Source of the DNA: Escherichia coli
Lineage (GTDB): Bacteria; Pseudomonadota; Gammaproteobacteria; Enterobacterales; Enterobacteriaceae
Assembly (NCBI RefSeq): GCF_024223415.1
Contig: NZ_CP100500.1
DNA: 64,000 nucleotides
Strand: one strand, 5' to 3'
The position numbers were made by a program, and so were the translations under genes. Positions 30,363 through 34,784 of this stretch are shown one piece after another. Position 1 is the stretch's first letter, and the number at the start of each line of letters is the position of its first letter. The notes beneath the pieces were generated by a model. That model did not search any database. It saw only the letters and a list, made by a program, of their open reading frames with translations, and was not told where the DNA came from.

Positions 30363-31561
30363 ACGCCATGTGAATCTGTCGGCTACCGCCATTAGTGACG
30401 GAATTTTCTGTGGGGCAGCGTACCAATGGCATTCGGTTAAGTTCTTGCTGGAGCATCAAAAGAGTTCCAGCGCGTTCTGGGCCGTACATATTTTCGTGGG
30501 TAACACCTCCCTGGCCTTACTCGCTGAGTCATACAACTGCGATCGATTCAGATGCCATTTTGCAATCAGCCTCTCAGAAAGAGCGCAACAGAATGATTTT
30601 AAATGTTTTCCTGTTACCCGAATCAGTAAAGACAAGTACCTCACTACGAGAAACAAGCAGTTTTTGAAATTAAAATTTTGTTTATTTCTACTACTACCGA
30701 TGAAAACGTTATTATCTTAATAATTAATGTCATTTCAGGATATCCATGTAAGGTTAAGTAATAATATATGAGCCTGTATTTTTATTTTACATCTTTCTCA
30801 CTCTGTGAATGAAAATCTTCAATAGAAAATTTGATTTGAATAATTTATATAACTCTTCTATATTACATCAATGCCGATAGAAATCGTAAAAAGCTTCGTT
30901 TTCATAAAAATTTCTTTCAATAATATTTGTAGCTGGACCAGCCCCTTGAAACGCCAGATAGTGGATGTATCTTAAAATAAGAGACAGGCTTGGATATATG
31001 TCTGACACTGGTTCTAATTTTGAGATGACTGGAACTTTGCCGGGGCTGGAGCTTCGTAAACGTAAAACTCCTCAGGAAAAAATTGGCATTATTCAGCAGA
31101 CAATGGAGCCTGGCATGGCGGTGTCACATGTGGCGCGTTTGCGTTGTATTCAGCCCTGCCTGTTGTTTAAGTGGAAAAACAATCTCTGGAAGGAAGTCTC
31201 ACTGCTGTTGCTTCAGGAGAGGGTGTCGTTCCTGCCTCAGAACTGCCTGCCGCTATAAAACAAATAAAAGAGTTACAGCTCTTGCTGGGTAAAAAACCAT
31301 GGAAGTTTAGATCCTCAAAGAAGTGGTGGAGTATGCGCAATCGCGAAAATGGATAGCGCATGTGCCCTTGTTACCTTCGGACAAGGAATAGCCCCGGTAA
31401 GCCGTGTTCTGGGCGATACTCAGGCGGCAGTCCCTAAATGAAGGACTACCGTTAGTGAATGCAAAGCGCGTTTACCGTAAGCGTAAACTGACCGCCGTAT
31501 GTAGCCATCAGACGAGAATTGGTAACTTAGACGCCCATCTGATATAGACGGACATCTAAGT

Positions 31562-31987
31562 ATGGAATTACAGGACTGGCGAAAAGAACCTCGTAAAAAC
31601 TATTCGAATGAATTCAAACTTCGTATGGTGGAACTGGCATCACAACCTGGAGCTTGTGTTGCACAGATTGCACGTGAAAATGGCGTCAATGATAATGTTA
31701 TTTTCAAATGGCTCAGGCTCTGGCAGAACGAAGGGCGTGTTTCGCGGCGTCTTCCGGTAACGACCTCTTCTGACACTGGCGTTGAATTATTACCTGTAGA
31801 AATAACGCCGGATGAGCAGAAAGAACCTGTGGCGGCCATTGCGCCGTCTTTATCCACTTCCACTCAGACCAGAGTCAGTGCCAGTTCCTGCAAGGTGGAA
31901 TTCCGTCACGGTAACATGACGCTGGAAAATCCATCGCCAGAGCTGCTCACGGTGTTGATCCGTGAACTGACCGGGAGGGGAAGATGA
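31562..31987 (+). CDS. IS66-family accessory protein TnpA (orf1)
   Basis: 141 aa; ARENGVNDNVIFKWLRLWQNEG motif. Confidence 0.85.
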   Translation: MELQDWRKEPRKNYSNEFKLRMVELASQPGACVAQIARENGVNDNVIFKWLRLWQNEGRVSRRLPVTTSSDTGVELLPVEITPDEQKEPVAAIAPSLSTSTQTRVSASSCKVEFRHGNMTLENPSPELLTVLIRELTGRGR

Positions 31988-32334
31988 TCTCACTCCCATC
32001 AGGTACCCGTATCTGGCTCGTTGCCGGCGTTACCGATATGCGTAAATCCTTCAACGGACTGGGAGAACAGGTACAACATGTGCTGAATGATAATCCCTTC
32101 TCCGGTCACCTGTTTATCTTCCGTGGCCGACGGGGTGACACCGTCAAAATTCTTTGGGCTGATGCTGATGGTCTGTGCCTGTTCACCAAACGCCTGGAGG
32201 AAGGCCAGTTTATCTGGCCTGCGGTACGTGACGGCAAGGTATCCATTACCCGCTCGCAACTGGCAATGCTCCTCGATAAGCTGGACTGGCGTCAGCCAAA
32301 AACATCCAGCCGTAACTCACTGACAATGTTGTAA
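31984..32334 (+). CDS. IS66-family TnpB (orf2)
   Basis: 116 aa, overlaps orf1 by 4 bp; RIWLVAGVTDMRKSFNGL motif. Confidence 0.85.
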   Translation: MISLPSGTRIWLVAGVTDMRKSFNGLGEQVQHVLNDNPFSGHLFIFRGRRGDTVKILWADADGLCLFTKRLEEGQFIWPAVRDGKVSITRSQLAMLLDKLDWRQPKTSSRNSLTML

Positions 32335-32364
32335 AAAACTCCTGACCGCATTATAAAAACGGTC

Positions 32365-33978
32365 ATGAGTCAGAAATATCTCATTCGCATCGCAGAGCTG
32401 GAAAGATTGCTCTCTGAGCAGGCTGAAGCCCTCCGTCAGAAAGACCAGCAACTGAGTCTGGTTGAAGAGACGGAAGCCTTCCTGCGCTCTGCACTGACAC
32501 GTGCCGAAGAAAAGATCGAAGAAGATGAACGGGAAATAGAACATCTGCGGGCTCAGATAGAAAAACTGCGCCGGATGCTGTTCGGTCCCCGTTCTGAAAA
32601 ACTGCGTCGTGAAGTTGAACTGGCTGAGGCTCTGCTGAAACAACGTGAACAGGACAGCGATCGTTACAGTGGGCGGGAAGACGATCCTCAGGTTCCCCGC
32701 CAGTTGCGACAGTCGCGCCATCGTCGTCCGTTACCGGCACACCTTCCCCGTGAAATACACCGCCTGGAGCCAGAAGAAAGCTGTTGCCCGGAGTGTGGCG
32801 GTGAGCTGGATTATCTGGGGGAAGTCAGCGCTGAACAGCTGGAACTGGTGAGCAGTGCCCTGAAAGTGATCCGCACAGAACGGGTAAAAAAAGCCTGTAC
32901 AAAATGTGACTGTATTGTTGAAGCACCGGCGTCGTCCCGCCCGATAGAGCGTGGTATCGCGGGCCCCGGATTACTTGCCCGCGTGTTAACGGGAAAATAC
33001 TGCGAACATCTGCCACTGTATCGTCAGAGTGAAATCTTTGCCCGCCAGGGTGTCGAACTGAGCCGGGCCTTACTCTCCAACTGGGTTGACGCGTGCTGCC
33101 AGTTAATGACACCGGTGAATGATGCCCTGTACCGTTATGTAATGAACACCCGCAAGGTTCACACTGATGACACACCGGTAAAGGTACTGGCACCGGGTCA
33201 GAAAAAGGCGAAAACAGGGCGTATCTGGACGTATGTCCGGGATGATCGCAATGTGGGTTCGTCATCTCCTCCAGCGGTCTGGTTCGCGTACTCGCCGAAC
33301 CGGCAGGGGAAACACCCGGAGCAACACCTCCGCCCCTTCCGGGGTATCCTGCAGGCGGATGCGTTCACAGGTTACGACAGGTTGTTCAGTGCAGAACGTG
33401 AAGGTGGTGCACTGACAGAAGTTGCGTGCTGGGCCCATGCCCGGCGAAAAATCCACGATGTATACATCAGCAGCAAAAGTGCGACGGCAGAAGAAGCCCT
33501 GAAGCGAATCAGTGAACTGTACGCCATCGAGGATGAAATACGGGGATTAGCGGAGTCAGAGCGTCTTGCCGTCAGGCAGCAGCGAAGCAAAGTGTTACTG
33601 ACGTCGCTGCATGAATGGATGGTGGAGAAGAATGGTACGCTGTCGAAAAAATCCAGACTGGGCGAAGCGTTCAGCTATGTACTGAATCAGTGGGATGCCC
33701 TCTGTTATTACAGTGATGACGGTCTGGCGGAGGCGGATAATAATGCTGCGGAAAGAGCGCTTCGTGCAGTCTGTCTCGGAAAGAAAAACTTTATGTTCTT
33801 TGGCAGCGATCACGGCGGCGAGCGTGGAGCACTGTTGTACGGGCTGATCGGCACCTGCCGTCTGAACGGTATCGATCCGGAAGCGTATCTGCGCCATATC
33901 CTGAGCGTACTGCCGGAATGGCCTTCCAACCGAGTTGATGAACTCCTGCCATGGAACGTAGTACTCACCAATAAATAA
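32365..33978 (+). CDS. IS66-family transposase TnpC (orf3)
   Basis: 537 aa; coiled-coil N-terminus, CxxC zinc motif, DDE-type core. Confidence 0.9.
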   Translation: MSQKYLIRIAELERLLSEQAEALRQKDQQLSLVEETEAFLRSALTRAEEKIEEDEREIEHLRAQIEKLRRMLFGPRSEKLRREVELAEALLKQREQDSDRYSGREDDPQVPRQLRQSRHRRPLPAHLPREIHRLEPEESCCPECGGELDYLGEVSAEQLELVSSALKVIRTERVKKACTKCDCIVEAPASSRPIERGIAGPGLLARVLTGKYCEHLPLYRQSEIFARQGVELSRALLSNWVDACCQLMTPVNDALYRYVMNTRKVHTDDTPVKVLAPGQKKAKTGRIWTYVRDDRNVGSSSPPAVWFAYSPNRQGKHPEQHLRPFRGILQADAFTGYDRLFSAEREGGALTEVACWAHARRKIHDVYISSKSATAEEALKRISELYAIEDEIRGLAESERLAVRQQRSKVLLTSLHEWMVEKNGTLSKKSRLGEAFSYVLNQWDALCYYSDDGLAEADNNAAERALRAVCLGKKNFMFFGSDHGGERGALLYGLIGTCRLNGIDPEAYLRHILSVLPEWPSNRVDELLPWNVVLTNK

Positions 33979-34784
33979 GCGTCAATACGGTGCTCCGTTG
34001 ACGCTTACCGTTTACCGGATAATGAGCGAAAATATCCTGTTGTTACATGACAAACCATCACGACCGCAGCGGGAACATAAAGGCCGAATATCGGTAAGGA
34101 AAGCGACCAGCGTTGATGTTCTGATGGCTTTGAGTTCGGTTGCGATGATGGCGAAAAAGTCCGGGTTACGTTCGCTCTGGACTGTTGCGATCGTGAAGCT
34201 ATCGACTGGGCATCCAATACGGGAGGTTACAATAAAGCGACAGTGCAGGATGTGATGTTAGGAGCGATAGAAAAACTCTTTGGCGATAAAGTACCGGAAC
34301 AGTCCATCCGGTGGTTGACAGATAACGGTTCAGCGTATAGAGCGCATGAAACACGGCAGTTCGCCAGAGAGTTGGATCTGGAGCCCTGCACAACGGCAAT
34401 CAGCAGCTCTCAGAGTAATGGAATGGCAGAAAGGTTAGTGAAAACGATGAAGGAAGACTACATTGCGTTCATACAGAAACCGAATGTAATAACGGCATTG
34501 CATAACCTTGCATAGGCGTTCGAGAATTACAATGAGAACCACCCGCATAGTGCGTTAGGTTATCTCTCACCACGGGAATATCGATGTCAGCGGATAACGT
34601 CACCTTAGATGTAGCAGTTGCCAAACAGTGACTCAAGGGCAGGCTTACCGCATACACTGACACTTAGCGGATCGACAGAATATTATTAACAGTTCATCAC
34701 TGAACGCTACATAATCAGAGTTGCATAAATAAAATGTTATGTTATAACATTTTAATACCGACATATGTTTTCGGATGTATATGA

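Follow-up and report, generated by a model that had tools for sequence, protein, structure and literature searches.

A window of 64,000 nucleotides from an Escherichia coli contig (NZ_CP100500.1, assembly GCF_024223415.1) contains IS66-family transposase genes with pieces of an IS3-family element on either side. The arrangement raises the question of whether one element inserted into the other, in what order the events took place, and whether the outcome matters to the genes nearby. We find that the IS3-family element inserted first, that it decayed, and that the remnant then received a recent, lineage-restricted insertion of ISEc23. Coordinates for each feature are given in Table 1. The names ISEc23 and ISEc48 follow the PGAP annotation of near-identical copies. 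The region as a whole is crowded with insertion-sequence debris.

Table 1. Features of the nested locus, in window coordinates.
Feature	Position	Strand	Basis
IS3-family (IS2-group, ISEc48-like) remnant, left part: left terminal repeat TGGACCAGCCCC..., orfA pseudogene, orfB start	30934-31476	+	Alignment to IS2, L005 and L006; Pfam HTH_Tnp_1 on translation
1-bp deletion in A-run, remnant left part	31175-31179		Comparison with intact relative
Loss of G, remnant left part	within 31290-31296		Comparison with intact relative
TAG stop, remnant left part	31308-31310		Comparison with intact relative
158-bp internal deletion junction	31408-31415	+	Breakpoint in 8-bp microhomology TCTGGGCG
Target site duplication, left copy, CGTTTACC	31469-31476	.	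Abuts ISEc23 left end
ISEc23 (IS66 family), complete, 2532 bp	31477-34008	+	Full-length matches and shared termini
ISEc23 left terminal inverted repeat, GTAAGCGTAAACTGACCGCCGTAT	31477-31500	+	20/24 bases match the right end in reverse complement
tnpA, accessory protein, 141 aa, intact	31562-31987	+	Pfam HTH_Tnp_1 (PF01527); NCBIfam NF047595
tnpB, IS66 Orf2-type accessory protein, 116 aa, intact	31984-32334	+	Pfam PF05717, 1e-36; NCBIfam NF033819, 120.9 bits
tnpC, DDE transposase, 537 aa, intact frame	32365-33978	+	Pfam DDE_Tnp_IS66 (PF03050), 7e-98; NCBIfam NF033517, 446.8 bits
ISEc23 right terminal inverted repeat, ...ATACGGTGCTCCGTTGACGCTTAC	33985-34008	+	Pairs with left end, 20/24
Target site duplication, right copy, CGTTTACC	34009-34016	.	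Abuts ISEc23 right end
Remnant right part: orfB (integrase-core, DDE) pseudogene and degenerate right end	34017-34647	+	Alignments; Pfam rve, 7e-14
1-bp deletion, remnant right part	34095/34096		Comparison with intact relative
TGA stop, remnant right part	34114-34116		
TAG stop, remnant right part	34513-34515		

The inner element has three consecutive genes, tnpA-tnpB-tnpC, with an IS66-type DDE transposase in tnpC, and is accordingly assigned to the IS66 family. All three proteins exceed the cut-offs of their NCBIfam models (for TnpA, 83 bits against 74). The tnpA and tnpB genes overlap by 4 bases, and TnpC additionally contains the zf-IS66, LZ_Tnp_IS66, and IS66 C-terminal domains. Many E. 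coli copies annotated as ISEc23 by PGAP match the element over its full length at 99.8-99.9% identity, and about 3300 records contain a full-length copy. An earlier note had described a complete IS66-family element, and the three intact open reading frames, the terminal repeats, and these full-length matches bear that description out. Copies found elsewhere, for example in E. coli 042 and plasmid pEC958, share with the window copy its length, termini, and gene layout, an 8-bp duplication, 99.8% nucleotide identity, and identical TnpA (WP_000422741) and TnpB proteins. Five nucleotide differences in 2532 bp separate the window copy from known copies and give rise to three substitutions relative to the common TnpC allele (T75P, P190S, and P396A). 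The same base changes underlie the TnpC substitutions in the ISEc23 of strain GF60. ISEc23 is reported to be present in pEC958 and to have expanded in ST131 and O104:H4 (PMC4398462, PMC7373316); the insertion site in the window is lineage-specific. The window copy is structurally complete with intact frames and may have retained mobility, although its TnpC departs from the common allele at the three residues named.

Elements of the IS66 family have imperfect terminal inverted repeats of around 20-30 bp that begin with GTAAGCG. The inverted repeats of ISEc23 are likewise imperfect, and both ends open with GTAAGCGT (terminus GTAAGCG). Its boundaries are fixed by three independent lines of evidence: the inverted repeats, seven other copies of the element, and the empty site. 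The seven copies come from other E. coli replicons, chromosomes as well as plasmids, where they occupy unrelated sites. Their termini are identical, and all seven are flanked by their own, different, perfect 8-bp duplication. The 8-bp duplication reported in the earlier note is present in the window, with both copies of CGTTTACC directly abutting the ends of ISEc23. Repeats of 8 bp also accompany experimentally captured IS66-family elements in Paracoccus (PMC3281130). A 9-bp duplication, CGTTTACCG, was considered, as a ninth base (G) matches on both sides. On the left this G already belongs to the element, whose conserved terminus GTAAGCG begins with it, and the duplication is therefore 8 bp. 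As an 8-mer, CGTTTACC is not unusual, with three occurrences in the window against 1.83 expected; the third, at 51462, is unrelated. The duplication is significant because of its position rather than its count, since both copies adjoin element ends that were fixed independently. The chance of an 8/8 match flanking a predefined element is approximately 1.5e-5.

The outer element encodes an orfA helix-turn-helix followed by an orfB rve domain, the arrangement that characterizes the IS3 family, and both genes are broken. The earlier designation of this host as "IS2-like" holds at the level of the group. The remnant and IS2 (K-12 IS2A) belong to the same family and group and can be aligned end to end. 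In NCBIfam, orfB is matched best by "IS2 transposase TnpB", at a score below the cut-off of that model, and transpos_IS3 is also among the best matches. The designation does not extend to IS2 itself, given a nucleotide identity of about 65% to IS2A and a PRK09409 score far under the cut-off. Nearer relatives are ISEc48 and an unnamed intact IS3-family element (L005, plasmid pEC17CM7_2; L006, strain CFIAFB20190167), with which the rejoined remnant shares 86-90% nucleotide identity over its length, the orfA-orfB order, and the left terminal repeat. At this level of identity the host is a relative or a diverged remnant rather than ISEc48 itself. The left end of the remnant aligns with the ends of both IS2 and the ISEc48-like elements, and the right end is degenerate. 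An IS3-family element typically ends in inverted repeats and is flanked by a target duplication of 3-5 bp. The sequences next to positions 30934 and 34647 contain no matching short repeat. With no recognizable target duplication and with its right end degenerate, the remnant has approximate boundaries. The right-hand limit is approximate for the further reason that similarity to ISEc48-like elements ends near 34610.

The flanks had also been described as the two halves of an orfA/orfB pair. They do derive from IS3-family orfA and orfB, but what they make up is an inactivated remnant. Relative to L005 and L006, it is missing 158 bp, has lost a single base at each of three positions, is interrupted by three in-frame stops, and diverges over its last ~37 bp. 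The missing segment corresponds by alignment to positions 887-1044 of L006. The microhomology at the breakpoint is found on both sides of this segment in L005, and in L006 with 7/8 bases. The final 8 bases of the left part are themselves one copy of the target duplication.

Excising 31477-34016 joins the flanks without a gap into one continuous IS3-family sequence that differs from a natural uninterrupted allele by 5 substitutions in 1262 bp. A reconstruction of this kind was the check proposed in the earlier note, with failure of the flanks to rejoin counting against its reading, and its order of IS3-family element first and IS66-family insertion second is supported. In strains 104 and IMT5155 the rejoined flanks match as a single ungapped piece, with one copy of CGTTTACC and the same gene neighbourhood. 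The flanks might instead be two unrelated IS3-family fragments beside an IS66 element, with the 8-bp repeat a coincidence, as the unexceptional 8-mer count and the density of insertion-sequence debris would allow. The probability of this is negligible: the repeat matches at predefined ends, the flanks rejoin in register against both IS2 and the ISEc48-like elements, and the contiguous empty-site alleles found in nature already refute it.

The empty site is present at ≥99% identity in approximately 120-150 complete E. coli genome records, which come from diverse sources. The occupied left junction is found in 2 of 5426 complete E. coli genomes, GF60 and ECCNB12-2, with the same duplication in both; each originates from chicken or chicken meat. 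Every lesion in the remnant, including the 158-bp deletion, is common to the empty-site strains, and ISEc23 therefore entered an element that was already dead. Sequence alone does not formally polarize the change, and elements flanked by short repeats are known to excise precisely at low frequency, so the occupied state could in principle be ancestral, with the uninterrupted alleles produced by loss of ISEc23 along with one 8-bp copy. Such a history would require many independent and perfectly precise excisions to account for the excess of empty records from diverse sources over two occupied ones, while the few differences between this ISEc23 and copies elsewhere fit a recent arrival. We consider it extremely unlikely.

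GF60 (NZ_CP172185.1) and ECCNB12-2 (NZ_CP033635.1) have junctions and a duplication identical to those of the window, and in both genomes PGAP annotates the split IS3 halves as pseudogenes on either side of ISEc23. Unlike the window, GF60 has a further IS3-family element inserted in the DUF4198 gene downstream. In ECCNB12-2, another IS3-family element together with ISEc45 has taken the place of the ISEc23 interior, and the adjacent 13 kb are rearranged. The surrounding mosaic island is present in several E. coli backgrounds. Exchange of alleles between these backgrounds is possible, and the nested structure may have come as a unit, either on a mobilized IS3-like element carrying ISEc23 or through homologous recombination of an occupied allele. 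We give this only a very slim chance. Lacking a working transposase and degenerate at one end, the remnant could not have moved by itself. An imported allele would still stem from transposition of ISEc23 into the same remnant, and the order of events would be unchanged.

It is almost certain that the locus arose by insertion of an ISEc48-like element, its decay, and later transposition of ISEc23 into the remnant orfB in a single sublineage. The ISEc48-like element (IS3 family, IS2 group) landed within a mosaic genomic island, upstream of the gene for a TonB-dependent receptor. It then decayed in place through frameshifts, stop codons, and the loss of 158 bp between short repeats, before ISEc23 transposed into the orfB pseudogene in one sublineage. 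Judging from the workings of DDE transposases, TnpC would have cut CGTTTACC with an 8-bp stagger and joined the element ends, and repair of the gaps would have duplicated the 8 bp.

The site that ISEc23 occupies within the IS3-family orfB is conserved in IS2, where the sequence equivalent to the target is GTGTTTACCGGAT. The ISEc23 of E. coli 042 lies within the right-hand inverted repeat of an IS2, and several other copies adjoin IS3-, IS4-, or IS5-family genes. A junction search gave the appearance of a target preference, with matches reaching 8-18 bases to the left of the element end and four window-like flanks. We discarded it as a product of the ranking, in which those matches came first for covering more of the query. 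Among seven ISEc23 copies chosen solely by similarity within the element, no shared target sequence was found. It is very unlikely that ISEc23 prefers other insertion sequences or an A/T-centred 8-mer ending in C, or that read-through from tnpC alters expression of the downstream TonB-dependent receptor gene in this lineage. The tnpC gene is oriented toward the receptor gene. The insertion was probably neutral, because it struck a dead element and lies approximately 770 bp ahead of the next gene, that of the receptor (34785-36755). Sites resembling promoters of this gene are located downstream of the remnant, at 34657-34715, and also count toward neutrality.

Nested insertion sequences are commonplace, and this locus is a real and cleanly datable yet ordinary case of nested transposition that introduces no new element, mechanism, or biology. 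The same arrangement is already annotated by PGAP in RefSeq genomes. The rarity of the occupied junction among complete E. coli genomes makes it usable as a lineage marker. The locus also represents one further structurally intact copy of ISEc23 able to seed recombination, as exemplified by ECCNB12-2, where additional events have disrupted this locus and rearranged the neighbouring 13 kb.

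The IS66-family element in the window is a structurally complete copy of ISEc23, judged from its sequence, and it lies within a decayed IS3-family element. Features of the nested locus are collected in the table below. The products of the three ISEc23 genes carry IS66 domains (in TnpC, the zinc-finger, leucine-zipper and C-terminal Pfam domains as well as the DDE domain), and TnpA, TnpB and TnpC all score above the curated cut-offs of the NCBIfam IS66 models. The terminal inverted repeats are imperfect, matching at 20 of 24 bases, and start GTAAGCGT at both ends. Among 5426 complete E. 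coli genomes, the full element is matched at 99.8–99.9% in many chromosomes and plasmids, and PGAP labels the transposase of the matching copies 'IS66-like element ISEc23 family'. The window copy departs from the common ISEc23 sequence at 5 bases, which leave TnpA and TnpB unchanged and give T75P, P190S and P396A in TnpC. The intact genes, IS66 domains, paired termini and full-length matches bear out the earlier note's description of a complete IS66-family element.

Features of the nested ISEc23 locus; lesions are scored relative to an intact ISEc48-like relative from strain CFIAFB20190167 (L006)
Feature	Position	Strand	Details
ISEc23	31477-34008	+ (genes)	2532 bp; three intact genes
tnpA	31562-31987	+	141 aa; Pfam HTH_Tnp_1
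tnpB	31984-32334	+	116 aa; 4-base overlap with tnpA; Pfam IS66 Orf2 domain (1e-36)
tnpC	32365-33978	+	537 aa; Pfam IS66 DDE domain (7e-98)
CGTTTACC repeat copies	31469-31476, 34009-34016		directly abut both ends of ISEc23
IS3-family remnant	30934 to ~34647		end approximate
158-bp deletion	31408-31415		breakpoint in microhomology TCTGGGCG
1-bp deletion	31175-31179		in A-run
1-bp deletion	31290-31296		within this interval
1-bp deletion	34095/34096
Stop codons	31308-31310, 34114-34116, 34513-34515
Promoter-like sites	34657-34715		downstream of insertion
TonB-dependent receptor ORF	34785-36755		~770 bp downstream of insertion

We retrieved seven further ISEc23 copies from unrelated sites and compared their termini and flanks. 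All seven share the termini GTAAGCGTAAAC...GTTGACGCTTAC, and a perfect 8-bp repeat, different for each copy, lies on both sides (AGCTTTCC, TATCATTC, GGAAATAT, AGCATTAC, CGATTCTC, GAATGACC and CGTATATT). The position of the element ends and the 8-bp duplication thus belong to ISEc23 itself. In the window, the repeat CGTTTACC was found exactly where the earlier note had placed it; a third copy, at 51462, is unrelated. Three occurrences across the window against 1.83 expected is not unusual; the significance of the repeat comes from its position at independently fixed element ends, where an 8/8 match has a chance of ~1.5e-5. The match extends to a ninth base (G) at both ends. A 9-bp duplication is ruled out because the left G already belongs to ISEc23, opening its conserved terminus GTAAGCG, which sets the duplication length at 8 bp. 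PMC3281130 lists 8-bp repeats for experimentally captured IS66-family elements as well.

By alignment, the host element is assigned to the IS3 family and is IS2-like, yet it is a different element from IS2: identity to IS2A of K-12 is ~65% over an end-to-end alignment, compared with 86–90% to intact elements that carry the annotation ISEc48 or 'IS3 family transposase, programmed frameshift'. Translated pieces match HTH_Tnp_1 and rve; among NCBIfam models 'IS2 transposase TnpB' scores best, though far under its cut-off. The earlier label of an IS2-like host holds at group level only. Similarly, the flanks do rejoin in register as orfA/orfB halves, but deletions, frameshifts and stops mean that they are not intact genes. 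Some 37 bp at the right end of the remnant are no longer similar to relatives, and no target duplication of its own is recognisable at its flanks. The intact relative (L006 403-1735) is bordered by a 16-bp direct repeat CCATTTTCATAAGTGC at L006 387-402 and 1736-1751, much longer than the 3–5 bp expected of IS3-family target duplications. A minus-strand IS2-like copy (~47776-48959, within 47671-48959) is ~70% identical to the remnant, and a solitary IS66-type end GTAAGCGCTCC lies beside it at 47671.

With ISEc23 and one copy of the repeat removed, 31476 and 34017 meet without a gap. The joined frame, ...AAG CGC GTT TAC CGG ATA ATG..., reads K R V Y R I M and fits the 'NAKRVYRIM' of IS2-group OrfB proteins. 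Many E. coli genomes also contain the rejoined 1262 bp in one piece, matched at 99.6% without gaps, so that the continuous IS3-family sequence implied by the earlier note is a natural allele. This contiguous allele refutes the alternative that the flanks come from separate, unrelated IS3 fragments and that the repeat is a coincidence. Strains 104 and IMT5155 have one CGTTTACC; their 542-bp left part is identical to the window sequence, and the 5 substitutions all fall in the right part. Both strains also share the gene neighbourhood, comprising a ugpB-like gene, a PemK/MazF remnant, the IS3 pseudogene, the TonB-dependent receptor gene and a DUF4198 gene. Between this ugpB-like gene and the remnant, short ORFs at ~30060-30360 resemble what is left of a toxin-antitoxin system; related genomes have them annotated as encoding a truncated PemK/MazF-type toxin (51–61 aa) and a small hypothetical protein. 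Since the empty-site strains align to the remnant without any gap, they share its lesions, and the host element was already dead before ISEc23 arrived.

A 240-bp empty-junction probe matched 154 records at ≥99% identity, with single-piece full-length matches to about rank 120 in an evenly spaced listing of the hits. A matching probe for the occupied left junction found only 2 of the 5426 genomes, GF60 (chicken meat, Switzerland) and ECCNB12-2 (chicken, China), both of which have both junctions with the same duplication. An ancestral occupied state, with ISEc23 precisely excised in all empty-site strains, is not parsimonious given ~120–150 empty records against two occupied. The occupied allele may have been imported by recombination, which would leave the molecular-level events unchanged. 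In ECCNB12-2 (L011 20249-35318), this nested locus has suffered a further hit: the ISEc23 interior (equivalent to window 31609-33788) is replaced by a partial ISEc45 and a copy of an IS3-family element also present at window 42206-43515, and the region corresponding to window 34549-47760 has undergone rearrangement and inversion.

The uninterrupted allele with its single CGTTTACC upholds the proposed order, with the IS3-family element first and the IS66-family insertion second. An ISEc48-like element was the first to insert, upstream of the receptor gene; after it had decayed, ISEc23 transposed into its orfB pseudogene in one sublineage. The 8-bp footprint itself is observed directly; by standard DDE transposase chemistry, it would arise from 8-bp-staggered cuts followed by repair. 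We argue that the insertion is probably recent because the occupied allele is scarce and this ISEc23 is nearly identical to copies elsewhere. Its effect is likely neutral, since it lies upstream of both the receptor ORF and the promoter-like sites. A 10-bp tandem duplication (GGATGTATAT / GAATGTATAT, 34773-34792), just before and overlapping the receptor ORF start, is common to the window and GF60 (occupied) and lacking in strain 104 (empty).

Further IS66-family sequences occur in the window. A second, different element (37679-40484) is 64–70% identical to ISEc23 and has a split tnpC (38850-39809, 39834-40454) and two tandem IS66-type left ends (37679, 37730); its right end is at 40484, and it lacks a flanking 8-bp duplication. 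A 250-bp fragment at 18262-18511, ~70% identical to the ISEc23 5' end, is more such debris.

ISEc23 is already named and widespread, with reports of its presence on plasmid pEC958 (PMC4398462) and of its expansion in ST131 and O104:H4 (PMC7373316). The nested locus is already in RefSeq, with parts annotated as pseudogenes flanking ISEc23. The ISEc23 copy of E. coli 042 (L014, NC_017626.1 5104251-5106902) is another nested insertion, sitting in the right terminal inverted repeat of an IS2 with the duplication GGAAATAT, then aggggcaaatcc. Nested insertion sequences are routine, and the nested ISEc23 described here is a correct and tidy, if ordinary, example.
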